Both the position numbers and the translations under genes were made by a program. Positions 1,224 to 60,654 of a stretch of 63,395 nt of DNA are shown here, piece after piece. The notes under the pieces are model-generated. The model was given only the letters and a program-made list of their open reading frames with translations. It was not told where the DNA came from and searched no databases. Each line of letters begins with the position of its first letter. Positions within the stretch are counted from its first letter, which is position 1. The stretch lies in assembly GCA_043745785.1 (NCBI GenBank), contig JAYTSG010000033.1:1-63395 (forward strand), read 5' to 3'. The DNA comes from a bacterium. GTDB lineage: Bacteria; Patescibacteriota; Minisyncoccia; Phycocordibacterales; UBA5272.

Positions 1224-1429
1224 GTGTCCCCAGCAGGGATCTCTCCGACTCGCAACAAAAGGCATAGTCGCTCGCTATGTGCCCAGCATAAACTCGTTAG
1301 TTTAACTGCCAATTTCAAGAGCTTGAATACAAGCTAAGAAATTTGGTAGCCTTCGGTTCTTCACCTGCATGAGGAACTCAGACAAAAGAAAAACATCACA
1401 GGATAAAGTGTTATGTTTTTCTTTTGTTG
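1224..1429 (-). repeat. Insert downstream of tRNA-Lys bounded by an 18-nt exact direct repeat of the tRNA 3' end
   Basis: gtgtccccagcagggatc occurs at 1224-1241 and at 1429-1446 (the latter is the tRNA T-arm/acceptor); internal hairpin 1383-1396/1414-1427. Confidence 0.6.
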
Positions 1430-3791: not shown

Positions 3792-3863
3792 GCTCTCGTA
3801 GTTCAATGGATAGAATATGGGTTTGCGGTACCCACGATGCAGGTTCGATTCCTGCCGAGAGCA
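3792..3863 (+). tRNA. tRNA-Arg (anticodon GCG)
   Basis: Acceptor gctctcg/cgagagc; anticodon loop UUGCGGU; T-arm gcagg-ttcgatt-cctgc. Confidence 0.8.
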
Positions 3864-3958
3864 CAACTGTGTGAGACAGACCGAGGTGCTTAAAAACAAC
3901 ATGTTTTGTATGTAGTTTTAATGGTTTACGAGGTTAACCTAGTATTGTTTACTAGTTT

Positions 3959-4633
3959 TTAAGAGCGTTCTTTACTATTAAGTATTTCTTGTGCAACCCT
4001 ATCATTTTCTTCTTTTGCTTGTTTTAGTGCCTCAGGTATTTTACCGATACTTTCGGCCATGTATGGAAGATCTTCTGCAGTATTTATCAGTGTGTCGTGT
4101 TCGCTGCCCTGCACATAAAACGACACGCCGATGAAGTTGGCGAGTTCCCGAGCACGAGCTAGTTCTTGGAAGCTTCGTACAGTTTGGTTTAATGCAGTGA
4201 AAGAATTTGTCGGTATTGGCAAAGGAATAGGTTTCCTGCCCTGATAGTACATGGAACTAGTTTGTTCACTTTTAAGTGTGATATAAAATGAGCTGTTTTT
4301 ACTCTCAACACCCTGAGTATTTACTGAAGAAGTAATAGTCTGATAAATGAAAACTATGTCAGCATAAGGGTATACAACACAGGTACTACCAACAATTCTC
4401 TTTTTTGTTACAGTTAGAGTTCTGGCGATACTATCCGCAGACACTGAAGTATTTGAGGATAAGAATAGAGCAACCAGCATAAAACAGAAGACAATAAGTG
4501 GAATGGCGACAGGTACAGTCTTTCCTGTTAAGAAAATAAAGAGTGTTATAAGGAAAACACTAGCACCAGTTAATCTTACTGGCCAGGCTGGACTGATGAA
4601 GGTTAATGTTGATGATGTGGGGGATGTTTCCAT
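3959..4633 (-). CDS. Hypothetical membrane protein (N-terminal TM helices)
   Basis: 224-aa ORF with hydrophobic N-terminal third; no recognisable family. Confidence 0.5.
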   Translation of the reverse strand: METSPTSSTLTFISPAWPVRLTGASVFLITLFIFLTGKTVPVAIPLIVFCFMLVALFLSSNTSVSADSIARTLTVTKKRIVGSTCVVYPYADIVFIYQTITSSVNTQGVESKNSSFYITLKSEQTSSMYYQGRKPIPLPIPTNSFTALNQTVRSFQELARARELANFIGVSFYVQGSEHDTLINTAEDLPYMAESIGKIPEALKQAKEENDRVAQEILNSKERS

Positions 4634-4641
4634 GCCAATTA

Positions 4642-5568
4642 TTATTTAACTGTTACTGTTGTTACAGAAGAAGACTGTAGTCTAGTTTTTGTATTTTTTG
4701 CTGTTAAGGTCTTTGTAAGAGTGCAGCCTATAAGGTAGGTATTAATCTTAAAAGAATCTTTCCCAGAAGCTGCAATATCTCGAGGCGGTCTTGTCTCATT
4801 TGACTTTGGATCAACACAACCTGTGGCTGAGTATGTCTCTGTAAGACTGTCAGCACCCGTTGAAGTCCATTCGTAATTCGCCCAATCACCAGCTGTAACA
4901 GTTATTTTGGTTGCTCCATTTGGAAAATCTGCACTTACAGAATAAGATATTATTGGTGCGGTGCCAGATGTTTTGTTGTTATCACTAGCGCCAGGAGCAA
5001 CATTAGCTGCTGTGGTATTCTTAATATAAAAATAATCACTCGTTCCTCCAGAATTATAAACTGTACTTACATTACTAAAAACTAACTGATATTTTTCATA
5101 CTGTTTTCTACTCATGTCTGGAACAGTAAAAGAAAACTTCCCGATTGTCTCGTCTGCATTACCTAATACTGTATCAAACTGGTACGTTGAATCAATAAGT
5201 CTAACTTGATATGAAGGTGCTCTAGCCATTTTGCCAGCAACCCATGTAACTGTATATGTTTGACCTGGCACAAGAACTGTTCCAAAACTTGGGTATGTGA
5301 CTTTAAAAGAAGTCACTTCTCTGTATTCCTCCGGAGTCATATCAGTTTTTGCCGTTTCTTTTACAATTTTTGTTAGTTGCTCGCCATCAGGTAATGCATC
5401 TGATTTAGTGGCAACACTAGCGGGAGTGGTTTGAAGAGCTTGACTATTTTTTATTTGTTTATATTTCCACAAACCCCCGACAGCGAGACAAATGACAAGA
5501 ATTAATACAAAAATTATTTTTTTCATACTATTTATTATATCATTTTTCAGTTCATTTGTCTTAAACAC
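4642..5568 (-). CDS. Hypothetical secreted or membrane-anchored protein
   Basis: 308-aa ORF; N-terminal anchor KKIIFVLILVICLAVGG; Thr/Ser-rich; no recognisable family. Confidence 0.55.
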   Translation of the reverse strand: MFKTNELKNDIINSMKKIIFVLILVICLAVGGLWKYKQIKNSQALQTTPASVATKSDALPDGEQLTKIVKETAKTDMTPEEYREVTSFKVTYPSFGTVLVPGQTYTVTWVAGKMARAPSYQVRLIDSTYQFDTVLGNADETIGKFSFTVPDMSRKQYEKYQLVFSNVSTVYNSGGTSDYFYIKNTTAANVAPGASDNNKTSGTAPIISYSVSADFPNGATKITVTAGDWANYEWTSTGADSLTETYSATGCVDPKSNETRPPRDIAASGKDSFKINTYLIGCTLTKTLTAKNTKTRLQSSSVTTVTVK

Positions 5569-5648
5569 CCCTGACCAAGAGGGTCCAAAATGTGTTTCCT
5601 GAAATTACTAGTAAGCCCTTATAGAGCTTGATTGTATAAAATCCGAGA

Positions 5649-5866
5649 CCGAGCGAGAGCACAGAATATAAAAGACCGAGAAGCCTCTCGGTCTTTTATA
5701 TTCTGTGCTCTCGGAGCAAGCAAACTGCTTTGCTTGCGTCAGGAATCGAAGGGTGGAGCTATGTTTTTCTAGCAAGAAAAACGAGCGAGCCGGGGTCGAG
5801 GAAATTTCGAGTGGCGACGAGAAATTATCCGTGACCGAAAGTGTACTCACATTTCCTGCCGAGAGC
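5649..5866 (+). repeat. tRNA-matched structured module, Arg-type copy
   Basis: 27-bp perfect hairpin 5655-5681/5686-5712; antisense acceptor tgtgctctcgg 5704-5714; hairpin H1 5715-5739; antisense T-arm caggaatcgaa 5740-5750; ccggggtcgag 5790-5800; sense repeat 5853-5866. Confidence 0.7.
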
Positions 5867-5998
5867 GCTCTCATGTGAGACAGGTCGAGAGGTTTATTTT
5901 CTTGGTCCCTAAAAAGACTATAGTTCAAAAGACGTACATATGAAGAATCCTCAAAAAAATTTTCTTTTGTTTGTTGTTCTGAGACAAAACAACTACAT

Positions 5999-6485
5999 CT
6001 ATGCTCTTTTCCATTCCGTCTTTACACCTTTAAGTTTGTTGTCCGCCATCAAAAGTTCATCATATATTCCGTCGATTAAATCTTTTTCTTTCACCGTTTC
6101 AAGCGTTACCCATTCGTAGGCATCAGTTTCACTTTCCTGTAGCTTCACTTCTCCAGAAACATAATCTGCCATGCACGATATCACGAGGGAAGGTGCACCA
6201 TCGGCGTGTACCGTTGCAAGACTTGTAACGTACTCTATAATTAGTGATTTCGAGTCCAACCTCTTCGCGCACTTCTCTTTTTAGAACTTGTTCAAGTACA
6301 TTGTACCAGTAATCTTTCGTATCTTTTGGAAGGTTGATATAATCATCAGTTTCTAATTTTCCTCCAGGCACAGTCCACATCGAAGGGAAGCGTTTTTTTC
6401 CTGCAGAACGTCTTGTAATGAGATACTTACCATCTTTAATAACAATTGCTGTCATAACCACTTCATGCAAATATTTATTTTCCAT
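5999..6485 (-). pseudogene. Nudix hydrolase interrupted by a 1-nt frameshift
   Basis: Nudix box GGKLE...REVREEVGLEI in ORF 6129..6485 continues as IEYVTSLATVHADG... in ORF 5999..6259 in another frame; junction near 6235-6245. Confidence 0.6.
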
Positions 6486-6610
6486 ATAATAAAGTGTAAC
6501 AAGGAACGATTTTTATAACAAGATATCTCCATGTCGCACCAAAAATATACCAATAGGCGTATACTACTACAGCGAAGGCAAACTGATTCGCATTATTTTA
6601 GTAAATTAGT

Positions 6611-9585: not shown

Positions 9586-9878
9586 TGGAAGAGAGGACTC
9601 AGTCACCAAACATATCTTTTACTTTTCTTTTTTAAAGTAAATAAAAAAGATATTTCGCTACATAAGGAAAACAGACAAAATCATTTCACAAAAACACTTA
9701 GGCTAATTTTCGTAAAAATTCCGTAATTAGTTTTTCATTTTGCCTCCTCTTTGTTTGATTTACAGCTTGATAGAGTTTTCCTAGGGATTAATCGTTTACT
9801 ATGAGTAGATTCTTTACTATCTATCTCCCACTAAAAATAAATATCACGAAGCAGGTGCTTCGTGATATTTATTTTTAG
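9586..9878 (-). repeat. Module downstream of tRNA-Val (partial homology to the Leu-type module)
   Basis: 33-bp perfect palindrome 9820-9852/9857-9889; on the minus strand aaaagatatgtttggtgac is followed by a degenerate tRNA-Val 3' copy gagtcctctcttcc (plus coordinates about 9586-9620). Confidence 0.5.
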
Positions 9879-9951
9879 TGGGAGATAGAGGGCTCGAACC
9901 TCTGACCTTCTCGGTGTAAACGAGTTGCTCTACCAACTGAGCTAATCTCCC
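9879..9951 (-). tRNA. tRNA-Val (anticodon UAC)
   Basis: Acceptor gggagat/atctccc; anticodon loop UUUACAC; T-arm agagg-ttcgagc-cctct. Confidence 0.85.
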
Positions 9952-11472: not shown

Positions 11473-11556
11473 GCCCAGGTGGCGGAATTGGTAGACGCAC
11501 TACCTTGAGGTGGTAGCGGGGTTATCCTCGTGGAGGTTCAAGTCCTCTCTTGGGCA
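11473..11556 (+). tRNA. tRNA-Leu (anticodon GAG)
   Basis: Acceptor gcccagg/cttgggc; anticodon loop UUGAGGU; long variable arm. Confidence 0.85.
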
Positions 11557-11815
11557 CAGAGAAATAAAAAACAAAGCTTTGTAGCTTTGTTTTTTATTTC
11601 TCTGTGCCCAAGAAGCAAGTGACCAATGTCACTTGCGTGAGGACTTGAAAGAATTGCCGGTCTACAGCTTTGAGTACTTCGAAAAGTTGTCGGCAATTCC
11701 CGGGGTCGCGAAACAATCTTTTTCTCAAGTCGAAGACGAAAAGAAAAAGATATGTTTGGTGACCAAGTCCTCTCTGTGCCCAAGAAGAAAGCAAACCGGT
11801 TTGCTTTCGTTACCA
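11557..11815 (+). repeat. tRNA-matched structured module, Leu-type copy
   Basis: 30-bp perfect palindrome 11548-11577/11584-11613; antisense acceptor 11603-11613; H1 11614-11638; antisense T-arm 11639-11649; cccggggtcgcg 11699-11710; sense T-arm 11764-11774; second antisense acceptor plus H1' 11775-11810. Confidence 0.7.
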
Positions 11816-12044
11816 AGTCTGATATCCTGATGATATTATTCTAACTATTACACATGAAAATAGTATACAAAGATAATGAATTTTAATCCTTGAAGAAAAG
11901 CCAAATGCAATCTTAATTATTGCTGGGGTATCGCTCGGCTTATTACTAGGTGTCACTAAACATCTTTACTCTGAAGACCCTGAGCTTTTTATTAGCACTC
12001 ATACGCATGTTGGTTTAGGGGCCATTGCTGTATTTCTGTTTGCA

Positions 12045-12568: not shown

Positions 12569-13014
12569 ATGAACTTATATTTTAGAAAAGCTGTAGTAGA
12601 TGATATTCCTTTGCTTCTTTCTCTTGAAGAAAGTGCTCGGGATTTAAAAGTATACTCAGGTACTTATAGCAGAGATGAATGGACAGAAGAGCTTAAGATC
12701 GGAGTCGTCTATATTATAGAAAGAAATGGAGTGCCTGTTGGTGATGTCATGTATGAAAAGAAGAGTGAGTGCTATTTTTATATCGATAAAATTTGGTACT
12801 ACCTGAGCATCAGGGTCAAGGCATTGCGAAAATAGCAATGGAGTATATTCTCTCAGAAATAGGAGAGGCAAAAAGAATAGATCTTGTCACTCATCCTGAA
12901 AATAATAAAGCCGTCAATCTATACGCATCGCTGGGCTTTGCTATCGAGTCGAGAAAAGAAGATTACTTTGGTGATGGAGAGCCAAGGATTGTTATGGTTA
13001 AAATTAGAGACTGA
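12569..13014 (+). pseudogene. GNAT acetyltransferase split by a frameshift
   Basis: ORF 12569..12835 and ORF 12793..13014 (LPEHQGQGIAK acetyl-CoA motif) are two halves of one GNAT fold; shift lies in the aaaattt run near 12790. Confidence 0.6.
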
Positions 13015-16699: not shown

Positions 16700-16771
16700 G
16701 TGGCTATAGTGTAACGGTTAGCACTAGGGTTTGTGGAACCCTCAGTTCGGGTTCAAATCCCGATAGCCACA
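16700..16771 (+). tRNA. tRNA-His (anticodon GUG)
   Basis: Acceptor gtggcta/tagccac (a G precedes at 16699); anticodon loop UUGUGGA; T-arm tcggg-ttcaaat-cccga. Confidence 0.85.
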
Positions 16772-16962
16772 CAAAAGTTCAAATCCCGATAAGTATACTT
16801 ATCGGGATTTGAACTTTTGTGTGGCTAAGCAAGCAAACTGCTTTGCTTGTGTGCGGGATTTGAAAGTCCGGAACATGTTTCGCTAGCAAGCGAAACGGTG
16901 AGGAGCGGGAGGCGAGAACTTTTTGTGGCGACAAAAAGTTACTTGCGGAAAAATCCCGATAG
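16772..16962 (+). repeat. tRNA-matched structured module, His-type copy M1
   Basis: 64-nt perfect palindrome 16764-16827; antisense acceptor 16820-16827; H1 16828-16852; antisense T-arm 16853-16864; H2 and H3 hairpins; sense repeat 16951-16962. Confidence 0.7.
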
Positions 16963-18473: not shown

Positions 18474-18577
18474 ATTCTGACCACTCATCTGAGTTCTAAT
18501 CCCATCTACGACAGTACACATGTAATAGTAAAAGACTGAGCTTCTTGCCCAGTCTTTTACTTTACACAAAGTGACTA

Positions 18578-18696
18578 TTCGGGATTTGAACCGCTGATTA
18601 GCAAATCACGCCGTGAGGTGATGGCCGCAAGGAGCGAAGAGCGACTGTAGGTTTCGAGCACAGCAGTGCAAGAGGCAAATCCCGATAGCCATACAA
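18578..18696 (+). repeat. Partial His-type module M2 (lacks H1)
   Basis: cgggatttgaacc 18580-18592 is antisense to the tRNA-His T-arm; cgtgaggtgatgg...ggagcgaagagcgac is homologous to the M1 body; ends in sense repeat 18676-18696. Confidence 0.55.
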
Positions 18697-18912
18697 GAGA
18701 AAAAAGACAGCTTACGCTGCCTTTTTGTCTAGCTATCAGTAACAAGATCTAAGTTTTGTTATGTAGGATTTGAAAAGAAAACTGGTATATGGAATGATAT
18801 TTTAAAAATATAATTTTGCTAGTTTTCTCCGGGGTCGAGACTACATGCCAAGATGAAAAAAAGCAAAACTTTTGAAGCGATCCATAGCTGTGACCAAATA
18901 TTCCGATAGTGG
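18697..18912 (+). repeat. His-type module M3
   Basis: H1-like taacaagatctaagttttgttatgt 18740-18764; aggatttgaaa 18765-18775; ccggggtcgag 18829-18839; gtgacc, then degenerate sense repeat 18897-18912. Confidence 0.6.
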
Positions 18913-19009
18913 CACTAATTCATAATTAACTAAAAATATCCTTACATATCAGGAGATTTTTAGCTCCGACATTTGTCTACTCAGTAGAGAATTACATTGA
19001 ATGTCATAA

Positions 19010-19487: not shown

Positions 19488-19690
19488 ACAAAATTTAAAT
19501 CCCGAAAGGTAAACCTTTCGGGATTTAAATTTTGCGAATACTCATAACAAGATCTAAGTTTTGTTATGTTAGATTTGAGTAAGATATCCGTATTTTCTGG
19601 AGTCGAGACTATGAGCCGAGATAAGAAGGTAAAACTTTTGAAGCGATCCGTAGTGTTGACTAAACATCATAATGATCACACCGTTTTGTG
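19488..19690 (+). repeat. His-type module M4 (paralog of M3)
   Basis: Hairpin 19490-19533 containing ttaaatcccgaa; 25 nt identical to M3 H1 (19546-19570); ctggagtcgag 19597-19607; aaaacttttgaagcgatcc shared with M3. Confidence 0.6.
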
Positions 19691-20122
19691 AGTTCACTTT
19701 GTAGTACAGATATTAAATTAAATTTACCTAAAATATCCTTATGAAAAAATATTTTTTGTTTATAACTTACGTACAGACGTCGTTAGGTATAGAATGTATT
19801 ACAATCACTGAGCTTGATTAAAGGTCTTTTTTCAAAATTCTCAAAACTTTACTGCATTATTATTCTTGTGAAAGCAGATCCAAGACATGATTTAATAATT
19901 CAGAATACAGTATATTTCAGGATAATACTGGACCCTAGTCTCCGTTTAGAGTGACAGCAGGGGATCTTTTGAAAGAGGCCTAATGATTATTTGAAAAATA
20001 GTAGAAAATGACGAGTCAACTATAGAGAGTATTTATACTAGCTATAGTTGGGTGATGTTAGATTTAATTTTAAAAAAGCAAACTTAGACGGACTCTTCCA
20101 TGTGAGTTTGTTTCCAGATACC

Positions 20123-33711: not shown

Positions 33712-34257
33712 ATGGCAAAACAAGAACTTGGAGGAGATAGGCACTGGTACGCAATCCATACCTACAGTGGGTATGAAAATGCAGTGATGAGAAATCTCAA
33801 GCAACGTATTGAGTCTCTCGGTATGGAAGATAAAATTTTCACCGTGCTTGTCCCTGTTGAAAAGAAAATCAAAGTAAAAGGCGCAAAGCGTGTCGAGGTA
33901 GAAGAAAAAATTTATCCTGGCTATGTTCTCGTCGATATGATTGTAGATGATAATTCATGGTACGTTGTGCGTAACACTCCGCGCGTAACAGGTTTTGTCG
34001 GAGCTGGAACTACTCCAGTACCACTCTCACAGCATGAAATAGACCTCCTCTTTTCCCGTATGGAAAATAGTAAAATAGAACATGAGATTACTGTTGAGTC
34101 TGGAGAAATGGTCACTATTACTGATGGTCCGTTTAAAGATTTTGAAGGAAAGGTGAGTGAAGTTGATAAAGGCAGAGGAAAGCTCAAGGTTTTGGTAAAT
34201 ATGTTTGGACGTGAGACTCCAGTTGAGCTCGATTTTCTCCAAGTAAAGAAAATATAA
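33712..34257 (+). CDS. nusG: Transcription termination/antitermination factor NusG
   Basis: [17 protein letters not shown] start and C-terminal KOW ([10 protein letters not shown]). Confidence 0.9.
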
Positions 34258-34458
34258 ATAAAGAAGAGATAAATCACTCCATCTATTTTGTTGAAAATAA
34301 TTTTTTCTTCCGTATTGTACAAGTAAGTACATTTTGGTTGTAAAAATCATTTTCTCCTCGCAACTAAAGCAGTATCTCTCTTCCTAGGCTTAAGAAATAA
34401 AAATTGCCAAAAAGCAAAAAATCTGATAGAATAAGCAAACTTTAAAAGAAAAAATATC

Positions 34459-34869
34459 ATGGCTAAGAAAATTACAAAATACGTCAAAGTACAAATAGAA
34501 GCAGCAAAGGCAACTCCCGCTCCACCACTTGGTCCCGCTCTCGGTCAGGCTGGTGTTCAGATTGGTGATTTCGTGAACAAGTTCAACACAGCTACACAAG
34601 GAATGCAGGGAAGACTTTCTGTTAAAATCTACGTGTATGAAGACAGAACTTACGATTTCGTTATAAAGACTCCAACCGCTACATCTCTTATCATGAAAGC
34701 AGCTGGCATCACCAAAGGTAATTCAAAAGGGAATGCTGGAACTATTTCAAAGGATGAAATCAAGCGCATCGCAGAACTTAAGATGAAAGATTTGACAGCT
34801 CACTCTGTAGAGCAGGCGATGAAAATCATTGAAGGGTCAGCACGTTCTATGGGTCTCAAAGTAAAGTAG
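34459..34869 (+). CDS. rplK: 50S ribosomal protein L11
   Basis: KVQIEAAKATPAPPLGPALGQAGV typical of L11. Confidence 0.9.
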   Translation: MAKKITKYVKVQIEAAKATPAPPLGPALGQAGVQIGDFVNKFNTATQGMQGRLSVKIYVYEDRTYDFVIKTPTATSLIMKAAGITKGNSKGNAGTISKDEIKRIAELKMKDLTAHSVEQAMKIIEGSARSMGLKVK

Positions 34870-34984
34870 TTCTAAAAGTATTCCGTCTTCTTTGTTGTAA
34901 CTTCATTTTTGTCAGTCATCGTACCACTAAGTACGTTTCCTTCCAAAAACTCGTTACGCCTTGAATACGAAACACTTTTAAAAC
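34869..34984 (+). repeat. Dispersed roughly 115-nt element R3, copy A
   Basis: Core cgtaccactaagtacgtttccttccaaaaactcgttacgcct is homologous to 52908-52946; locus-specific imperfect inverted termini 34869-34885 / 34968-34984. Confidence 0.55.
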
Positions 34985-35017
34985 TACATAAAATTCTTTA
35001 GTTAACAACTTAGAATC

Positions 35018-35046
35018 AAAAAATCTCGCATTCGCGAGATTTTTTG
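35018..35046. terminator. Bidirectional terminator
   Basis: aaaaaatctcgc-attc-gcgagatttttt. Confidence 0.75.
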
Positions 35047-35106
35047 CTTTATGATAGAGTGCTTTCTGTACAGCCCTCGTGGCTGAAATAACATCTGGAG
35101 GCTCGT

Positions 35107-35688
35107 ATGAGCATCAAGAGTGATAAGTGGATACGCCGCATGGCGCAGCAGTCGGGCATGATCGAACCGTTTGAGCCCGGTCAAGTACGCCAGTCGGTCG
35201 ACGGCCAGAAGATCGTCAGCTACGGCACCAGCAGCTACGGCTACGATGTGCGTTGTGGCCCTGAGTTCAAAGTTTTTACGAACATTTTCAGTACTGTGGT
35301 CGATCCGAAGAACTTCGATGAAAAGAGCTTCGTTGACTGGAATGCGGATGATCACGAAGGGGTTTGTGTCATTCCTCCAAACAGCTTTGCACTCGCGCGC
35401 ACGCTGGAGTACTTCCGCATACCGCGCAACGTGCTGACCATCTGCTTGGGTAAGTCCACCTACGCCCGCTGCGGCATCATCGTCAACGTCACGCCTTTCG
35501 AGCCTGAGTGGGAAGGTTACGTGACGCTAGAGTTCAGTAATACGACGCCGCTGCCGGCCAAGATTTACGCTGGTGAAGGCTGCGCGCAGGTGCTGTTCTT
35601 CGAGAGCGACGAGGTCTGCGAGACGAGTTACAAGGACCGAGGGGGCAAGTATCAAGGACAGCGTGGTGTGACGCTACCTAAGGCGTGA
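35107..35688 (+). CDS. dcd: dCTP deaminase
   Basis: [20 protein letters not shown]...[20 protein letters not shown] pattern of Dcd; about 60% GC in hand-counted lines. Confidence 0.85.
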
Positions 35689-35790
35689 TGGGTGAGGTGC
35701 TGTGAGTACCAAAGAAAGGTGAGTCTACGGACCCACCTTTTCTTCTTTCTTACTTTCAGAGTTGACACCTAAAGAAATGTTTTCATAACC

Positions 35791-35822
35791 CAAAAAAAGA
35801 AAGAGGCACCTTTGTGGTGCCC
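35791..35822 (-). terminator. Intrinsic terminator for thyX
   Basis: ggcacc/ggtgcc stem followed on the minus strand by a T run. Confidence 0.6.
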
Positions 35823-35841
35823 CGAGCCAAATGGCTGCTGT

Positions 35842-36666
35842 TCAAACTTTCCAGTATTCAGGAACGAGTGCCCCGTTCACCTCTTTGAAGTCTCCGAACA
35901 GCTCAGGGACGTTTGCAAGCATCTCCTTTCCGACCTTCTTGTAGACGTGAACGATTTCTTCTTCTGCTCCTTCGTTCGTACGGAGTGCAATGATGTGCCG
36001 AAGGGCACGAACATTTAGACTCCAGACACCTCCTGTTGCGATTCCCATGCCGATGCCACGGCGAAAAGCGGAGGTCAGTACTTTCTTGCCATGGAATGTG
36101 CTCGAAGGGTCGAGCTCTTCCTTCCATGTTCCTGCGAAGAATGCCATCATTTCTTCTTGGCTCGTGAACTGGGCAGTCAAGCGTTCTCGGCTAAGCTGTT
36201 TCTTACGAGCAAGTGTCTCTGAGTCGCTAGTTTCTTCTCGAAAGCATTCGGGCATCCAAAATTCAATGTTCTCGTAGCGTACGTATCGCATACTCCGTTC
36301 GGAGATAGCGACGCCTGCGCGATGACGATTGTTTTCTCCCGTGAAGACTCGTGAACAGCCGTTGATGCCGAAAGTGAAGACGGCGTGCTCAAGAACAGAG
36401 CCATGTCGTTGCTTCATGACATTGTCAAGATAGTTAACCATGTCTTTTCTCACCTTGGTGACGTTAGGGTTGAGCCCGGGTTGAAACGACATATAGCACT
36501 GCTTTGCCGCAAGAGCGACGAGGAGTGCGGGGTCAGAGACAGCTTCTTGTTCGGGTATCTCAAACTCGTCTGCCCCGAGATCGTCAAGCCAAAGGCGTAC
36601 AGCTTTGCGGTCAACAACAGTTTTTGCAATTTGGAAGACACGAATTTCGTTAAAGGATGATGCCAT
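35842..36666 (-). CDS. thyX: Flavin-dependent thymidylate synthase ThyX
   Basis: ThyX signature RHRAGVAISERSMRY (RHR-x8-S-x-R-Y). Confidence 0.85.
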   Translation of the reverse strand: MASSFNEIRVFQIAKTVVDRKAVRLWLDDLGADEFEIPEQEAVSDPALLVALAAKQCYMSFQPGLNPNVTKVRKDMVNYLDNVMKQRHGSVLEHAVFTFGINGCSRVFTGENNRHRAGVAISERSMRYVRYENIEFWMPECFREETSDSETLARKKQLSRERLTAQFTSQEEMMAFFAGTWKEELDPSSTFHGKKVLTSAFRRGIGMGIATGGVWSLNVRALRHIIALRTNEGAEEEIVHVYKKVGKEMLANVPELFGDFKEVNGALVPEYWKV

Positions 36667-36834
36667 GATGGCCTCCGTATGGGTTAGGGATTGCGTGTGC
36701 AGAGATCTCTTTTCAGGGACTCTTAAAAAACTCTACTACTTTAAGCTCTATTTTGCAATTTTGTTTATTCTTTTAGCAAGAGTATAATTGCTGGCAAGGT
36801 AGCATTAGGCTACTTTGTTCATTAACTAAACCTT

Positions 36835-37458
36835 GTGAGGACGCAAATGATACACGCAAAATATATCGTTATTGACGGTATTGACGGTGGTGGAAAAACT
36901 AGCCTTTTCTCTTGGCTGAAAACAGTTTTTCCAACAGGAAAGTTTGAATATACGCGAGAGCCCGGAGGAACACCTCTCTCTGAAAAGATTCGCCCACTTC
37001 TTTTGCAGGAACCCATGTCTCCGTACTCTGAAATGTGTCTCTTCATCGCTGCTCGCGAAGACACTCGAAAACAAGTCGTTGCTCCAGCACTTGCGCGTGG
37101 TGTTCATGTCATTTCTGATCGTTCTGATTCTTCTACATTTGCCTATCAGCTTCGTGGAAGAAGACATGAAGACCTGCAAGATCTTTTTTGGAAGATGAGT
37201 GAAAGGATCCACCCTTCGCCGTCACTCTATATCTTTCTTGACCTTGATCCAAAGGTTGCTGCTGGGCGTATGGAAGGGCGAAGAGCGGATAGGTTCGATA
37301 CCGAGAGTATTGAATTCTTTAGAAGAGTGAGGCGAGGTTTTCAGGATTTTGCTGCTCATGTTCAAAGTCCTTGCCAAGTCGTCAGTGCTGAGCATTCACC
37401 AGAAATGGTTGCAGAAGAAGTTCGTGTGCTCATACAAGATCACTTGAGGGGGGAGTGA
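36835..37458 (+). CDS. tmk: Thymidylate kinase
   Basis: P-loop IVIDGIDGGGKT and DR(S/Y) motif; start may be 36847. Confidence 0.85.
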   Translation: MRTQMIHAKYIVIDGIDGGGKTSLFSWLKTVFPTGKFEYTREPGGTPLSEKIRPLLLQEPMSPYSEMCLFIAAREDTRKQVVAPALARGVHVISDRSDSSTFAYQLRGRRHEDLQDLFWKMSERIHPSPSLYIFLDLDPKVAAGRMEGRRADRFDTESIEFFRRVRRGFQDFAAHVQSPCQVVSAEHSPEMVAEEVRVLIQDHLRGE

Positions 37459-37533
37459 TTTCAGACGCAATACAAACAAGAGGGTGGTCAGAAGTGACCG
37501 CCCCTTGTCTTTTTTCTATAATACGATATTATC

Positions 37534-37959
37534 ATGCGAATGAGGCTCTTGATTAAAAAATTAGAACAAGACGCGAAGTTGCCTGAAAGGGCTCATAAAG
37601 AAGATGCAGGAGCTGATATTTTTTCTTTCGGTGAGCAAACTATTCTGCCGGGCGAAACCAAAAAGCTGCGCACTGGGATTTCCTTCGCTTTTCCTCCAGG
37701 TTATGTTGCTCTCATCTGGGACAAATCCTCTGTTGGAGCGCTTGGTATTAAAACTCTTGGAGGTGTAGTAGATGCTGGGTACCGAGGAGAAGTGCAGGTG
37801 GTTATGATAAATCTTTCAAAAAATAAAATCATCTTCTCGCATGGACAAAAAATAGCACAGATACTCATACAAAAAGTAGAACTTCCAGAAATAGTAGAGG
37901 TAGAAAGTCTCGATGCTACTTTGCGTGGAGAAGGTGGTTTTGGAAGTACTGGGAAATAA
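37534..37959 (+). CDS. dut: dUTP diphosphatase (trimeric dUTPase)
   Basis: AGADIFS, GVVDAGYRGE and GFGSTG motifs. Confidence 0.85.
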   Translation: MRMRLLIKKLEQDAKLPERAHKEDAGADIFSFGEQTILPGETKKLRTGISFAFPPGYVALIWDKSSVGALGIKTLGGVVDAGYRGEVQVVMINLSKNKIIFSHGQKIAQILIQKVELPEIVEVESLDATLRGEGGFGSTGK

Positions 37960-37973
37960 GGTAGTATGTTTGT

Positions 37974-39821
37974 ATGAATCCAGAGGAAGAGATCAGAAAC
38001 GCACTTATAAAAGTTAGTCAAAACTGTTTTAACAATTGGTCACCTATGTTTAATTTGGAGAAAAAAGATGATCTTAGACATGGAGATTACTCTACAAATT
38101 ACGCGTTCGGTTTCTTTGCGGATTTTGCTCGACTTACTGACACTCATGTTGGAGAAATGACAATTATTTTCCCAAATGATCTTCCAAAGCTAAAAAAATC
38201 AGCTAATCCTAAAGAGTTGGCTGATCAGTTGGTTCTTGTATTGAACAGTGATAATAAATTGAAAGAGATTGTTTACCATATCGAGTCTGCTGGTACAGGA
38301 TTTATCAACTTTTTTATAAAACCTGAGGTAATAAGGGAAGCTGCGTACACTGTCGGGAAAATAAAGACGAAATTTTCTGGTAAAAAAATTCTTGTTGAGC
38401 ACTCCTCTCCAAATCTCTTTAAGCCATTTCATATTGGCCACCTGATGAATAATATAGTAGGGGAGTTTTTAACAAGAGGAATGAGTTTCGCAAATAATGG
38501 TAATGTAACAGTACTTTGTTTCCCTTCAGACATTTCTTTTGGTATTGCAAAAGCTCTATATGTTTTGATGAAAGAAGAAGACATAAATACATCTTTATTT
38601 AATGAGTTTAAAACAATTGGCAGCGATGAAGATTTGTCAGAGGTTGTTTCCTATCTCGGCATCTGCTATGTAAAAGGCACAGCGCTGATACACCTCTCAC
38701 CAGAAGATAATTTGTTAGTACCTGAGGTTCGAGGGATAGCAAAAAAACTCTATGACGCGATTGAAGGAAGGGGGGATAAAAAATCCAGAGAGTATGAGTT
38801 ATGGCAAAGAGCCCATGAGCTCAATACTCAATACTTTCAAACAGTTATTGAAAGTATTGGCTCTCAGATGGGAAAGCCTATTTTTGAAAGTGAAGTCTCT
38901 TTGCTGGGAAAAGATATTGTTACAAAGAATATTCCTAACGTATTTACCGCAAGCGAAGGAGCTGTTGTTTATATTCCAAATGAAGAAAGAAAAGATATAA
39001 ATATCAGTGTATTCATCAACAGTGAAGGGCATCCTACCTATGAAGCGAAAGACCTCGGTCTTATTTATAAAAAGTTTTTTGATTATAAAGAGACAGATGT
39101 TTCACTATTTGTGACTGATGCAGAACAAACACAACACTTTAAGGTAGTGCTTGATGCTGCTTCAAAGTTGGGTGGAGACTGGGAGCAAAGAGTAAAAAAG
39201 AGCATTCACGTTCCTCATGGTAGGATGCTCTTTAAGGGGCAGAAAATGTCAAGTCGTCTGGGCGGCGTACCGCTTGCACTCGACGTGATTGCTGTAGTCG
39301 AAGAAGAAGTAAAAGAGCGCGCAGGGGACAAAATTGCGAATCTTTCGCAAGAAGAGAAAGGTAAACTCGCTCGAGAGATAGCACTCTCTGCGCTTCGTGT
39401 CGCGGTCCTTCGTTCCAAGCCAGGAATCAATATTAACTTTGATCCAGAAACATCACTTTCTTTTGAAGGGGATTCAGGGCCATACCTTTTGTATACGCAT
39501 GCTCGCTGTAGCTCACTTCTTGAAAAAGGCAAAGATATTGTACCAGAGTTTGATAATGCAGTTTCTGTGAGGGCTCTCGAGCGTACTCTTCTTCATTTCA
39601 ACAAGACTCTCAGAGAAAGTATTGAAGATATTGCTCCACAAAAACTAGTCACGTATCTTTTCCTTGTTGCTCAAGAATTTAATAGTTTTTATGGGCAAGA
39701 GCAGATTCTTTCGGAGAACGTCAAAAAAACGGCGCATAATCTCGCTATCGTTTCTTGGACAAAGGAAGTTCTGAAGCAAGGGTTGTATGTACTTGGCATT
39801 ACTGCTCCAGAGCGAATGTGA
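37974..39821 (+). CDS. argS: Arginyl-tRNA synthetase
   Basis: HIGH-type motif PFHIGHLMN; C-terminal anticodon-binding (DALR-like) region; ends in ...ERM as in ArgRS. Confidence 0.85.
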   Translation: MNPEEEIRNALIKVSQNCFNNWSPMFNLEKKDDLRHGDYSTNYAFGFFADFARLTDTHVGEMTIIFPNDLPKLKKSANPKELADQLVLVLNSDNKLKEIVYHIESAGTGFINFFIKPEVIREAAYTVGKIKTKFSGKKILVEHSSPNLFKPFHIGHLMNNIVGEFLTRGMSFANNGNVTVLCFPSDISFGIAKALYVLMKEEDINTSLFNEFKTIGSDEDLSEVVSYLGICYVKGTALIHLSPEDNLLVPEVRGIAKKLYDAIEGRGDKKSREYELWQRAHELNTQYFQTVIESIGSQMGKPIFESEVSLLGKDIVTKNIPNVFTASEGAVVYIPNEERKDINISVFINSEGHPTYEAKDLGLIYKKFFDYKETDVSLFVTDAEQTQHFKVVLDAASKLGGDWEQRVKKSIHVPHGRMLFKGQKMSSRLGGVPLALDVIAVVEEEVKERAGDKIANLSQEEKGKLAREIALSALRVAVLRSKPGININFDPETSLSFEGDSGPYLLYTHARCSSLLEKGKDIVPEFDNAVSVRALERTLLHFNKTLRESIEDIAPQKLVTYLFLVAQEFNSFYGQEQILSENVKKTAHNLAIVSWTKEVLKQGLYVLGITAPERM

Positions 39822-59733: not shown

Positions 59734-60044
59734 TTTGAGTTTATTGCATCTATTTTATTGACATTTACCGGAAACTTTTATTGAATACTACTAAAAATAT
59801 TCGTACCATTTTCATCAACGCCAATAAGAAATGAGTTCTTGGTAAGAGAGACATCCCCCTTCCTGAGGTAGGAAATGGTCTTCTAAAGAAAAAGAGTAAG
59901 CACTAAGAATTTTTTCATGAGATAAAGAGGAGAAACTTATATAACTTCTCGTCATGCCATGGGCATTTATTGTGATTGGAATGAACAGTAAATTTCATCA
60001 GACTCCTTCTTTTCATGAGACTCACAAGTTATTAGCTTTCTCAA

Positions 60045-60260
60045 GACATTTAGGGTCTTTCCGTCGCAAGTACTCGCGAGCTCATCTCGCTTGTTTTAGT
60101 TTTGTCTTGAACCCAACAAAACTAAAACATAGCTGCGACCGTTCGAATCCTCACAGACGTGAGCGTCTCCCAATATGATTCTCTAATCAGCGGTTCACGT
60201 CTTCCATCTCCACAGAAAATAAAAGTGCGACACCTTTCGGTGTCGCACTTTTATTTTCTG
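60045..60260 (-). repeat. tmRNA-matched module
   Basis: 31-bp perfect palindrome 60204-60234/60239-60269 includes the tmRNA 3' end; on the minus strand tgggagacgc, hairpin ctcac-gtct-gtgag, ggattcgaacgg (antisense T-arm), then atgttttagttttg...caaaactaaaac hairpin and gtacttgcgacggaaag as in M1. Confidence 0.55.
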
Positions 60261-60654
60261 TGGAGATGGGCGGATTCGAACCGCCGTGTACAAAAGGGTA
60301 AGGGTAGCATCTACGTTACGTAGTTTGCTTTTATATGTCTCGACATCCTCCTCTAAAAAACAAACCAAATGAGAAAGATGTCAAAGCACATTGTTTCGGA
60401 ATTTCTCTGTGCGTGTAGAAGTTCCTACGCTCGTAAGTATATTGCCCACACTTTCTCTTACGAGTAAAGAAAAAGGGGACACCAGGTTGGCGTATTACGC
60501 GAACGCTGGAGCAAATCCGAACGCCATATATGGTGAAGGGATAGCCTTAGCAGTTTTGTTTGCACAAAATTGTTACAACAAGCTTAACGAAATTTGTTGC
60601 CACTTCGGTGACGCACTACCTCTACCTTTTTTGTATCGATACCAGTACATCCCC
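60261..60654 (-). ncRNA. ssrA: tmRNA (SsrA)
   Basis: 5' GGGGAUG pairs with 3' CAUCUCC-A including G3:U; T-arm ggcggttcgaatccgcc; tag ORF 60563..60495 encodes ANKTAKAIPSPYMAFGFAPAFA*; lies downstream of smpB. Confidence 0.85.

Follow-up and report, generated by a model that had tools for sequence, protein, structure and literature searches.

Small structured modules with hairpin-split antisense copies of tRNA 3' ends behind tRNA and tmRNA genes of Patescibacteria and other bacteria

Module copies in the window

The window was the whole analysed stretch of 63,395 nt from a bacterium of the Patescibacteriota (contig JAYTSG010000033.1). All parts that a sequence-only reading of this DNA had listed behind tRNA-His were present at the positions given (Table 1). 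The part of tRNA-His copied into the module was its last ~20 nt: T-loop, T-stem 3' strand, acceptor 3' strand, and discriminator. The palindrome was composed of acceptor 3' strand, spacer, extra T-arm copy, and loop, followed by the inverse of these, and it occupied the place where other copies carried a terminator-like hairpin; at the orthologous tRNA-His locus of L138, a relative of the window with 85% identical MurE, an ordinary A-run/GC-stem/T-run hairpin was found in its stead. H1 was flanked by A on its 5' side and GT on its 3' side (AGCAAG..CTTGYGT). The T' of the L138 orthologue matched its tRNA perfectly, and the sense copy was truncated at the identical position in L138. In the predicted fold, the sense copy pairs with T' and closes the core, and P3 displayed compensatory changes and conserved G.U pairs in alignment A3. 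This architecture is far beyond chance: TTCAAATCCCGATA at ≤2 mismatches occurred seven times in the window (0.62 expected), the 22-nt H1 occurred twice (0 expected), and the folding z of the module was -4.4 as RNA and -5.2 as DNA.

Table 1. Coordinates of the tRNA-His module and of the other module copies and related loci in the window (CM, covariance model)
Feature	Position	Strand	Evidence or remark
tRNA-His(GTG), host gene	16700..16772	+	ARAGORN; Rfam tRNA, 65 bits
His palindrome, perfect, 64 nt	16764..16827	+	identical to own reverse complement
A' (tgtggcta), antisense to acceptor 3' strand and discriminator	16820..16827	+	sequence
H1, conserved hairpin (9 bp, 4-nt loop)	16828..16852	+	22-mer identical in Arg copy
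T' gcgggatttgaa, antisense to T-loop and T-stem 3' strand	16853..16864	+	one mismatch, adjoining H1
P2 (H2 of the sequence-only reading), class A core hairpin	16875..16896	+	MFE fold; stem covaries in alignment A3
Purine-rich conserved junction ggtgaggagcgggagg (GCGAGGCGGGGTCG type)	16897..16912	+	conserved between window and L138
P3 (H3 of the sequence-only reading), hairpin 16917-16940, with closing pairs	16913..16946	+	MFE fold; alignment A3
Right sense copy aaatcccgatag of tRNA-His 3' end, T-loop to acceptor	16951..16962	+	truncated at GATAG
Second and third His-type units	18490..18915	+	
Second and third His-type units, left part: tRNA-3'-like fragment, hairpin, contiguous A'T', core, sense copy	A'T' 18571-18590; sense copy 18676-18693	+	A'T' without H1
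Second and third His-type units, right part: hairpin, variant H1, T', junction, sense copy	H1 18738-18764; T' 18765-18774; junction 18829-18841; sense copy 18900-18915	+	sense copy decayed
Fourth His-type unit	19490..19700	+	decayed
Fourth His-type unit: T/T' palindrome, variant H1, T', junction	palindrome 19490-19533; H1 19544-19569; T' 19570-19579; junction 19599-19609	+	
Decayed tRNA-Arg(GCG) 3' fragment, preceding Arg-type module	5640..5663	+	
Arg-type module	5654..5866	+	CM 132 bits, E = 4e-40 (training sequence)
Arg-type parts: palindrome, H1, T', P2	5654-5713; 5715-5739; 5740-5750; 5761-5782	+	
Arg-type parts: junction, P3, sense copy	5783-5800; 5801-5826; 5853-5866	+	
Leu-type module behind tRNA-Leu(GAG) (11473-11557)	11549..11810	+	CM 49 bits, E = 4e-14
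Leu-type parts: palindrome, H1, T', core, sense copy	palindrome 11549-11612; H1 11614-11638; T' 11639-11649; sense copy 11764-11774	+	
Leu-type tail: second A', second H1	11775-11785; 11786-11810	+	
tmRNA-type module behind tmRNA (60258-60654)	60017..60269	-	CM 28 bits, E = 2e-7
tmRNA-type parts: palindrome, enlarged H1, T', class A core	palindrome 60204-60269; H1 60155-60203; T' 60142-60152; core to ~60061	-	
tRNA-Val palindrome: acceptor 3' strand, terminator-like hairpin, 11-nt A'	9821..9888	-	without H1
tRNA-Val locus: decayed class A right end	9591-9620		
tRNA-Lys (1429-1502) locus	1224..1427	-	no recognisable H1

The same architecture was also confirmed behind tRNA-Arg, tRNA-Leu, and tmRNA. 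The Leu-type module was not among the training sequences of the covariance model. Every scoring site of the model in the window adjoined a tRNA or tmRNA gene, or a displaced 3' fragment of one, and lay on its sense strand. The tmRNA-type module had orthologues in L131, L132, and L135. One correction concerned the Arg-type copy: it lay 1.8 kb from tRNA-Arg(GCG), behind a decayed 3' fragment of that gene, owing to a two-gene insert from 3865 to about 5640 (genes 3959-4633 and 4642-5568), and a 44-nt repeat was present at the locus (3849-3892 and 5853-5896).

The weaker copies proposed for tRNA-Val and for three more His-type sites were upheld in part. The tRNA-Val locus, arranged identically in L138, had the palindrome and a decayed right end but no H1; H1 variants were present at 18738-18764 and in the fourth His-type unit, and the antisense block at 18571-18590 was contiguous. 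The tRNA-Lys locus consisted of a terminator-like hairpin (1382-1427), a spacer of ~140 nt, and an 18-nt sense copy of the tRNA-Lys 3' end (1224-1241). Terminator-like hairpins with A-run, GC-stem, and T-run were recognised by eye in the Arg, Leu, Val, and tmRNA copies; at His and Leu, where the extended stem takes in the T run, a consensus terminator scanner for that reason made no call. Genes were interleaved with modules behind tRNA-His and tRNA-Arg, and this gene cargo had no H1 module of its own.

Distribution, templated arms, and fold

The search pattern was one degenerate motif composed of H1 and antisense T-loop. It matched loci in at least 120 genomes/species, compared with about 3 expected by composition-free arithmetic. 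The carriers were mostly Patescibacteria (CPR) and also included Elusimicrobia, Chlamydiae, Verrucomicrobia, and Proteobacteria. For 99 of the 124 pattern matches, a tRNA or tmRNA gene on the same strand ended ≤400 nt upstream, mostly at 20-60 nt, and the host genes of these 99 covered 20 specificities plus tmRNA. An antisense T-arm of ≥9 nt was present downstream of 99/194 tRNAs, compared with 2 in the upstream control, and of 52 occurrences of the class A junction motif, 39 followed a same-strand tRNA at a distance of ≤300 nt. The module, a non-coding unit of ~150-250 bases, was found behind ~20-50% of tRNAs, and most copies elsewhere stood solo between housekeeping genes.

At ~90 loci in other species, the arms A' and T' were exact antisense of the neighbouring tRNA or tmRNA and contiguous on it, in keeping with the claim that the variable blocks match the nearest tRNA; the exact antisense match had a median of 11 nt across loci. 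H1 had been claimed to split the antisense copy always at the T-stem/acceptor junction, and it interrupted the copy there in ~90 further loci, an exception in the window being the contiguous block at 18571-18590. The sense copy was located downstream, 90-150 nt beyond the arms. Sense copies began in the T-loop, and in 30 of 57 loci they went no further than the end of the tRNA; direct repeats measured 12-60+ nt, and the most extended sense copies or direct repeats reached 60-139 nt. Arms and sense copy were perfect in ~40% of loci and decayed in the remaining ~60%, which is a pattern of birth and decay.

The origin of the arms was read from G.U positions of tRNA acceptor stems in other genomes (n = 20): A' complemented the tRNA 3' strand in 19/20 and followed the 5' strand in 0/20. 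The arms were shown to be Watson-Crick copies templated on the tRNA 3' strand and not on the 5' strand. A' also tracked a change in the tmRNA acceptor (ggagatg versus ggaggtg). Two other origins were rejected: (i) a duplicated tRNA gene (pseudo-tRNA), since A' never tracked the 5' acceptor strand at the G.U positions, and (ii) a copy of mature tRNA, as in the primer-binding site of a retroelement, since the perfect palindrome to which the arms belong runs on into trailer sequence of the genome; CCA in the sense copy at 4 of 38 CCA-less genes, about chance level, likewise counted against the latter. A palindrome with the antisense acceptor block and no H1 module occurred in a close relative; the palindrome and A' are thus separable from H1, T', core, and sense copy, and part of the matching to the tRNA is a property of terminators in this lineage.

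The covariation suggested earlier for the scaffold helices was borne out in the alignments for H1, T':T, P2, and P3. Double compensatory changes were observed at 7 of the 9 pairs of H1, and compensatory changes were observed in 23/33 pairs of the class B core and in 19/25 pairs of the class A core, the latter together with conserved G.U pairs. The tRNA-sense strand folded more stably than its complement in 42 of 46 modules (p = 1.6e-8), and G.U pairs were conserved in that strand. The scaffold (H1, P2, junction, and P3) was thus shown to be selected for folding in the tRNA-sense strand, and these data support the proposal that the module probably acts as a functional folded single strand. A'/T' are predicted to pair with the sense copy, which would present the final 20 bp of the tRNA gene in duplex form, H1 projecting from the acceptor/T-stem junction, much as the sequence-only reading had supposed. 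Dependence on the replication strand was rejected: the bias of modules (46:30) equalled that of module-less tRNAs (48:24). Judged by sequence reading, no ribozyme or k-turn model or consensus fitted the junctions.

Relatives, entry point, and searches for enzyme and known family

At the tRNA-Leu of L138 orthologous to that of the window, H1, T', and core were absent. At its tRNA-Arg, L138 had a new unit between tRNA-Arg and the old unit and was devoid of the two genes that make up the 1.8-kb insert at the same position of the window. H1 was identical at 24/25 nt and the junctions were conserved between the window and L138, while hairpin apices and terminator stem had turned over; the same was true of tmRNA loci with 68-78% identical SmpB. 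In L138, the tRNA-Leu gene also had a direct-inverted-direct rearrangement at its 5' end. Two pairs of ~95% identical cores were each found within one genome: (i) one core behind tRNA-Cys and the other at a site where the arms differed and no tRNA was called upstream, and (ii) at tRNA-Arg and tRNA-Lys. DALYDY01 and JAZKFG01 were genomes in which different tRNAs carried near-identical cores. Near-identical cores at different sites had differing arms and terminators, and unrelated core classes occupied one tRNA in different lineages. A very recent copy in Cupriavidus had 2-nt microhomology at its left junction.

The mobility put forward earlier for the module gains support from these near-identical copies at different tRNAs, from presence and absence in relatives, and from accretion beside the tRNA, which together point to a probably mobile unit. 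The T-loop/3' end of the tRNA gene was shown to be the entry point of new units, sometimes of gene cargo. With each unit that enters come a new tRNA 3' end and a terminator-like hairpin of the unit's own; the older tRNA 3' end is displaced downstream as the sense copy and later decays, and repeated entry generates arrays. A pattern for the unoccupied tRNA-Ser site of Cupriavidus had 0 matches in metagenomes.

The search for a linked enzyme consisted of all-against-all clustering of 675 ORFs located within -3/+4 kb of 124 copies, together with phmmer and a Xer-like seed. It returned housekeeping families only, plus three Xer-like genes at inconsistent positions; no protein gene recurred within ±4 kb of the 124 copies, and no integrase lay beside any of them. 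Pfam detected no recombinase, reverse transcriptase, or transposase in the 20 unassigned ORFs of the window, in agreement with the remark that the window encodes no recombinase, nor in nine neighbours of proteobacterial copies. The module pattern had 0 matches among 2.9 million viral contigs, and the Cupriavidus copy had 0 matches in plasmids and Escherichia coli genomes. Rfam 15 at gathering threshold identified only tRNA and tmRNA in the whole window, and its E-value mode gave only spurious long-hairpin (miRNA) matches for two modules. No published description of the module was found in the full-text literature, which does not prove that none exists.

Candidate explanations

The leading explanation, offered tentatively, sees in the module a miniature integrative cassette, non-coding and non-autonomous, that is specialised for tRNA and tmRNA 3' ends. 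Such a cassette would replace the tRNA 3' end, work as a folded single strand, and be mobilised in trans. The unit is ordered as T-loop 3' half, T-stem 3' strand, and acceptor 3' strand, then terminator-like hairpin, A', H1, T', and structured core. Its folded structure may be the site of action for a recombinase or other enzyme encoded elsewhere, and candidates for the single strand are DNA, either incoming or in replication, and RNA made by read-through from the promoter of the tRNA. It counts against the model that 150-250 bp makes an implausible dsDNA circle as substrate, so that a single-stranded or larger carrier is needed. The most economical idea for the matching of arms at a new tRNA would be that the end of the local tRNA is copied by fold-back (snap-back). 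The most novel proposal, which we thought rather doubtful, was a new class of minimal mobile element: a protein-less cassette of 150-250 nt, travelling or acting as a folded single strand, that an enzyme of the host, or another unlinked one, would insert at the T-loop, its arms being re-templated on the recipient tRNA. An equal alternative to it would be a family of tRNA-specific cis-encoded guide or trailer RNAs.

Several observations weighed against the cassette: A' occurs without the module, replication-strand bias is absent, viral and plasmid matches are nil, the enzyme searches found none, and no empty/filled pair of otherwise identical sequence was obtained. A simple T-loop crossover cannot explain three matched blocks on one scaffold at a new tRNA, and the strong conservation of H1 and junctions between species with saturated neutral DNA could mean a host function.

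Among the known elements that resemble the module, one group comprises integron attC and CTX-phage attP(+), to which the module had been likened: structure is selected over sequence with one strand favoured, inverted target-like segments can fold into a displayed target duplex with an extrahelical feature (H1 in the module), and cassette-like arrays stand beside a fixed entry point. The module differs in having a tRNA gene end as target instead of attI or dif, a multi-helix junction instead of a bulged hairpin, and neither AAC/GTT core triplets nor intI. Integron attC is an imperfect palindrome R''-L''...L'-R' with AAC/GTT triplets (RYYYAAC/GTTRRRY). It was not supported as an identity for the module: T' ended in ..TCGAA followed by variable bases, no GTTRRRY was present, the right copy began with CGAAT or GATTCC preceded by GTGAC or a hairpin, and no tyrosine recombinase was found among the tested ORFs of the window. 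As for CTX-type IMEX, the one-strand fold of inverted target-like sites is predicted for the module and covaries, but the target was a tRNA or tmRNA end and not dif, and no viral contig matched as a filamentous-phage carrier would. Another group comprises bacterial MITEs and IS200/IS605-derived palindromes, which are likewise small, non-coding, multi-copy, and hairpin-rich, have one active strand, and are mobilised in trans, as the proposed cassette would be. Unlike these, the module is strictly tied to tRNA and tmRNA 3' ends, its 'inverted repeats' copy the local target, it has long, variable direct repeats in place of a fixed short target duplication or none, and it lacks replication-strand bias. 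IS200/IS605 elements enter 3' of a fixed tetra- or pentanucleotide, make no target duplication, and are oriented by the lagging-strand template; the direct repeats (12-60+ nt) and the strand ratio of the modules do not agree with this. Class C group II introns share the position immediately 3' of a terminator-like hairpin, but the module is far too small, is devoid of intron domains, and has no Rfam match.

Next to the cassette stood a host-serving cis-encoded RNA, which we considered unlikely: a structured 3' trailer would be transcribed with the tRNA or tmRNA, its arms pairing with the tRNA 3' strand or the sense copy around H1. Possible variants were a defined substrate for tRNA-processing enzymes or RNase III, a device for read-through disposal, and a stable small RNA with a cap mimicking acceptor/T-stem. 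The module always lies on the tRNA-sense strand, which is the more stable one and conserves G.U pairs; H1 and junctions persisted in the window versus L138 and at tmRNA loci while apices and terminator stem turned over; A' covaried with the tmRNA acceptor; and, by sequence reading, A':A plus t':t mimic the 12-bp acceptor/T-stem stack of the neighbour with H1 replacing the D/anticodon arms. Against these points, only ~20-50% of tRNAs carry the module and it is missing at orthologous tRNAs of close relatives, unrelated core classes serve one tRNA across lineages, arms and sense copies are decayed in ~60% of loci, and there are tandem arrays and near-identical copies within genomes. Moreover, the terminator-like hairpin separates the tRNA from the arms, and most transcripts may therefore stop short of these; the strictly Watson-Crick arms (19/20) point to templating, whereas selection at the RNA level would tolerate G.U.

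In a further explanation, which we regarded as quite improbable, the inverted and direct copies of the tRNA would be by-products of snap-back template switching in the hairpin-rich region at the tRNA 3' end, through tandem-inversion-duplication or quasipalindrome events between T-arm and terminator hairpin; H1 and core would be passengers of gene conversion among loci, and no dedicated enzyme would be called for. Tandem inversion duplications have a direct-inverted-direct layout in Salmonella genetics, and the module has the same layout (T A, A' T', T A), perfect templated arms, and junction microhomology, as at the Cupriavidus copy. Long perfect palindromes through the acceptor strand, H1-less versions with contiguous A'T', the similar rearrangement beside tRNA-Leu of L138, and the lack of a linked enzyme also fit. 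But such duplications are sporadic and have no conserved inserted scaffold, and template switching leaves unexplained (i) a 25-nt hairpin conserved in sequence and position, as well as conserved cores, across several phyla and at least 120 species, (ii) covariation with conserved loop and junction nucleotides, and (iii) units that bring their own terminator to the tRNA-proximal position.

A guide RNA for an enzyme encoded elsewhere (IS110-type recombinase, or an RNA-modifying or RNA-cleaving enzyme), whose arms would select the tRNA gene or tRNA, appeared very improbable. In its favour, a conserved hairpin stands between arms of 8 + 12 nt whose target is contiguous, the scaffold is conserved with variable arms, and the sense-strand signals are RNA-like; the target strand would be continuous across a three-way junction, as in H/ACA guides, but H/ACA proteins are not known in bacteria. 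The comparison with the bridge (seek) RNAs of IS110/IS1111, made in the sequence-only reading, found no support beyond a conserved scaffold with short variable segments complementary to the insertion target. Bridge RNAs have two internal loops that pair with opposite strands of target and donor, while A' and T' have the same polarity, are predicted to pair in cis instead of forming open loops, and match a contiguous target of 20 nt; the module has no adjacent DEDD recombinase or other linked effector and does not lie at the end of an IS. Moreover, targeting a gene that is already adjacent has no obvious role, and the arms are decayed in most loci.

Equally improbable were scars, i.e., attL/attR-proximal remnants of kilobase-sized tRNA-using integrative elements or prophages after deletion of the coding part: direct repeats of the tRNA 3' end do start in the T-loop, and arrays are interleaved with accessory genes behind tRNA-His and tRNA-Arg, but the pattern was not found in 2.9 million viral contigs or in plasmids, none of the 124 copies has an integrase beside it, most are solo between housekeeping genes, and the gene cargo of the window carries no H1 module.

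tRNA genes are classic landing sites for mobile DNA, and their known users are kilobase-sized with their own integrase. The module resembles tRNA/tmRNA-attB islands, including integrase-less cis-mobilisable tandem elements, in its tRNA 3'-end direct repeats from the T-loop, in the restoration of the tRNA by incoming DNA, and in arrays with newer elements beside the tRNA and older ones displaced. Direct repeats, T-loop crossover region, and restored tRNA were all found, including at tRNA-Arg of the window versus L138, but no integrase was encoded beside the att site; the module further differs in being non-coding and 150-250 bp in size, in its absence from viral and plasmid collections, in an inverted att copy split by a conserved hairpin, and in a covarying structured core.

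Whatever its nature, the module is a cassette that is tiny, conserved, and structured, and a large proportion of the sampled CPR tRNA and tmRNA genes are followed by it. If mobile as a folded strand, it would extend structure-based recombination sites (attC and CTX attP) to tRNA genes and point to an unrecognised enzyme; if an RNA, it would stand for a new and large family of structured RNAs that are linked to tRNAs in minimal-genome organisms. Its palindromes break short-read assemblies, and it inflates the apparent intergenic space of CPR genomes. Exact-protein look-ups of the window's own strain returned only short contigs, which ended at palindromes. The module also yields spurious ORFs, e.g., 5608-5928 and 11538-11816 in the window.

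Modules behind the tRNA genes of the window

The window was a Patescibacteria (CPR)-type genome segment with 35–40% GC and small housekeeping genes; it contained seven tRNA genes and one tmRNA gene, and close protein relatives carried the names Patescibacteria, Paceibacterota, or Vogelbacteria. The module behind tRNA-His was composed of the tRNA 3′ end, a perfect 64-nt palindrome (in place of the terminator-like hairpin of other copies), A′ (antisense to the acceptor 3′ strand), hairpin H1, T′ (antisense to the T-loop and T-stem 3′ strand), and a structured core with hairpins P2 and P3, followed by a sense copy of the tRNA end; all parts lay exactly in the order and at the coordinates proposed by the sequence-only reading. 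This module folded far more strongly than shuffled sequences; across the window, the tRNA-end 14-mer (≤2 mismatches) occurred seven times versus 0.62 expected, and the H1 22-mer twice versus 0 expected. The same order, proposed for further loci too, was recovered in Arg-type, Leu-type, and tmRNA copies. The Val copy and three further His-type copies were degenerate, as was a copy behind tRNA-Lys; the three His-type copies, 3′ of tRNA-His, were interleaved with two accessory genes (encoding a cupin and a secreted, peptidoglycan-binding protein).

Coordinates of modules and associated features (window positions unless stated)
Feature	Position	Remark
tRNA-His	16700-16772	host gene of His module
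Perfect 64-nt palindrome	16764-16827	behind tRNA-His
A′	16820-16827	His module
H1	16828-16852	His module
T′	16853-16864	His module
P2	16875-16896	His module
Purine-rich junction	16897-16912	His module
P3	16917-16940	His module
Sense copy of tRNA nt 16755-16766	16951-16962	His module
Arg-type copy	5654-5866	same part order
Leu-type copy	11549-11810	same part order
tmRNA copy	60269 down to about 60017	same part order; minus strand
Acceptor-spanning palindromes	9821-9888, 11549-11612, 5654-5713, 60204-60269	also tRNA-Leu and tRNA-Val of L138
1.8-kb segment	3865-5640	genes 3959-4633 and 4642-5568, minus strand; between tRNA-Arg(GCG) and old 3′ end plus module
44-nt repeat	3849-3892 / 5853-5896	bounds 1.8-kb segment
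tRNA ends, CCA check	e.g., 16766-16775, 3858-3866, 11551-11560	
Contig ends at palindromes	L001 (window about 16793); L133/L134 (inside tmRNA terminator palindrome); L123/L124	same- or related-strain contigs

Two mechanically called minus-strand ORFs, 5608-5928 (106 aa) and 11538-11816 (92 aa), lay wholly inside modules; they were almost certainly not genes, yet are annotatable as hypothetical proteins. None of the three tRNA genes inspected [His, Arg(GCG), and Leu] encoded CCA, each being followed by CA, and tRNA-His displayed A73 plus G at position −1, a combination unusual for bacteria. GC skew was positive over almost the entire window; the three intact canonical modules (Arg, Leu, and His; plus strand) were on the G-rich strand, and the three minus-strand modules (Lys, Val, and tmRNA) were divergent or decayed, numbers too small to mean anything. 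The block 34000-38000 had 44–45% GC, held ThyX (Pfam) beside ORFs read as dCTP deaminase, thymidylate kinase, and dUTPase, and may represent a nucleotide-metabolism cluster gained by horizontal transfer. A GNAT-like acetyltransferase frame (12569-13014), located in the variable region 3′ of the Leu module, appeared split into overlapping ORFs 12569-12835 and 12793-13014, which could reflect a frameshift or a pseudogene.

A conserved folded scaffold tied to t(m)RNA 3′ ends

Further copies existed beyond the window: a scan of one genome per species with the single pattern AGCAAG-N12-CTTGYGT-N1-3-GGANTYGAA, in which tRNA identity was not specified, gave at least 120 loci among the matches listed versus about 3 expected by chance (arithmetic estimate). 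Hosts among the matches listed were mostly Saccharibacteria, Paceibacterota, and other Patescibacteria, with a few in Elusimicrobia, Simkaniaceae, Verrucomicrobiae, Gammaproteobacteria, Duganella, and Cupriavidus. A same-strand t(m)RNA gene ended ≤400 nt (usually 20–60 nt) upstream of H1 in 99 of the 124 matches listed, with 20 specificities plus tmRNA represented. The block 3′ of H1 was the exact antisense (median 11 nt) of the upstream gene's T-loop and T-stem 3′ strand, the block 5′ of H1 was antisense to its acceptor 3′ strand, and about half of the loci had a 12–22-nt sense copy of the tRNA end 90–150 nt further downstream. Two further proposals were thereby borne out in other species: the variable blocks matched the adjoining tRNA, and H1 was a clean insertion at the T-stem/acceptor junction, since the two antisense blocks were contiguous on the tRNA. 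An antisense T-arm of ≥9 nt was found within 200 nt downstream of 99 of 194 tRNAs (matched loci plus the window) but in the upstream control region of only 2 of 194; 21 of these 99 had no canonical H1 match nearby, most of them having H1 variants with compensatory change of the base stem.

In H1, nine base pairs closed a 4-nt loop; an unpaired A preceded the stem and GU followed it. The claimed covariation of the scaffold helices held: double compensatory changes were found in 7 of 9 H1 pairs (the figure of 100% H1 pairing being partly circular because sequences were picked by a hairpin finder), and the core downstream of T′ fell into at least two classes: (i) class A, the window's type (closing helix, P2, GCGAGGCGGGGUCG junction, and P3), with compensatory changes in 19 of 25 pairs and two P3 positions being G.U in 13/20 and 8/20 sequences, and (ii) class B (long hairpin, GUACUG-type junction, and small hairpin with GUA loop), with compensatory changes in 23 of 33 predicted pairs, T′/sense-copy helix included. 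In 42 of 46 modules, H1 plus T′ plus core gave the more stable fold on the tRNA-sense strand (p = 1.6e-8; mean folding energy −44.8 versus −39.7 kcal/mol on the other strand), and G.U pairs were commoner on that strand, which together argue that the selected form was a single strand of tRNA-sense polarity. This strand may act as RNA or as DNA: the conserved G.U pairs are compatible with an RNA form, and the sense strand was also rich in GNA triloops, and GCGAAGC, an unusually stable DNA mini-hairpin, occurred 14 times on it versus 2 on the other strand. No replication-strand bias of modules was found in the wider sample.

Templated arms and turnover by insertion next to the tRNA

At acceptor-stem G.U positions, A′ was the Watson–Crick complement of the 3′ strand in 19/20 cases and equaled the 5′ strand in 0/20, so the 3′ strand was the template of the arms, and a pseudo-tRNA (a second, degenerate tRNA gene) was rejected. 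The arms extended into the genomic trailer, not into CCA, which rejected a primer-binding site; the genomic tail was also present on the sense copy, and the template was therefore the gene or precursor rather than the mature tRNA. For A′, the T-stem block t′, and the sense copy, taken one by one, the match was perfect in about 40% of loci; the other loci had decayed versions, a birth-and-decay pattern. At t(m)RNA genes, the terminator-like hairpins were long perfect palindromes running through the acceptor 3′ strand, even with no H1 module following; their inner stems were unrelated between close relatives yet always perfect, which requires strong selection or hairpin-templated correction.

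H1 plus core was about 95% identical at different sites of single genomes, with different arms and terminator stems, as in two near-identical pairs: (i) tRNA-Cys plus a site with no tRNA called upstream and (ii) tRNA-Arg(CCT) plus tRNA-Lys. The core class at one and the same tRNA differed between lineages. The most telling comparison was that with L138, a close relative (MurE 85% identical) with conserved gene order: (i) the tRNA-His module was orthologous (H1 24/25 identical, T′ perfect, and junctions kept), with hairpin apices and terminator stem replaced; (ii) tRNA-Leu of L138 had only tRNA, terminator palindrome, and A′, with H1, T′, and core absent; (iii) tRNA-Val had the palindrome only in both; and (iv) at tRNA-Arg(GCG), a new unit of another subclass separated the L138 tRNA from its decayed old unit and was complete, from a tRNA 3′ end and terminator-like hairpin of its own through A′, H1, and T′ to the core. 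At this place the window had a 1.8-kb two-gene segment, absent in L138, and its old unit was intact. This segment, flanked on both sides by a 44-nt repeat of tRNA end plus flank (75% identity) and devoid of an H1 module, encoded two functionally uncharacterized proteins, secreted or membrane-bound, one of which weakly matched Kre9/KNH (Ig-like); it resembles gene cargo that integrated at the tRNA. The L138 comparison indicates that new DNA inserts at the tRNA gene's T-loop/3′ end, leaves that gene restored, and displaces earlier 3′ ends downstream. The extents of sense copies match such tRNA-proximal entry and displacement: they began in the T-loop, ended within 2 nt of the tRNA end in 30/57 loci, ran on through the terminator when recent (about 60 nt, perfect, in Cupriavidus), and formed 1.x tandem units in a few loci. 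At the tmRNA locus, all four species compared (SmpB 68–100% identical) had the module, with A′ tracking a tmRNA acceptor change and terminator stems unrelated; H1 plus core was replaced in one lineage. In L135, a related contig, an 82-aa GIY-YIG domain ORF (2457-2705), absent there in the window, was located between smpB and the tmRNA gene.

Candidate explanations

The reading that fitted the data best was a miniature, non-autonomous integrative cassette, which would supplant the tRNA 3′ end and act via a folded sense-strand structure; the folded strand would display a duplex version of the tRNA-gene end, from which H1 branches where acceptor and T-stem meet, and would serve as substrate of a trans-acting enzyme. 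This comes close to the folded element envisaged by the sequence-only reading, whose likenesses to integron attC and IS110-type guide RNA were rejected, as were IS200/IS605 derivatives and group II introns, each on a defining test of class membership. Three points stood against the cassette: (i) the searches found no enzyme or carrier, with no recurrent protein family within −3/+4 kb of the 124 copies listed (neighbors being housekeeping genes), no recombinase, transposase, or reverse transcriptase in 20 unassigned window ORFs (the window having been said to encode no recombinase) and nine proteobacterial neighbors, no H1 pattern in 2.9 million viral contigs, and no match of the Cupriavidus copy in plasmids or E. 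coli; (ii) it does not account for how three blocks come to match a new tRNA; and (iii) H1 and junctions were strongly conserved between orthologues, behind which a host RNA function could lie. Snap-back template switching, as source of the tRNA-matching copies, accounts for the direct-inverted-direct layout, the perfect arms, copies that lack H1, and a comparable rearrangement at the tRNA-Leu 5′ end in L138, but leaves the conserved scaffold unexplained. That rearrangement (L138, about 6460-6600, upstream of tRNA-Leu) was a direct-inverted-direct duplication that covered the tRNA-Leu promoter and about the first 20 nt, the D-arm being among the parts copied in inverse; it points to snap-back rearrangement as a common event near tRNA genes of this lineage.

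The module was real, widespread, and in none of the libraries searched: no Rfam 15 family matched it, and no description was found in the literature searched. Short-read contigs, whether from this strain or from relatives, ended inside or just before palindromes; the modules break up assemblies, and MAGs may contain too few of them.
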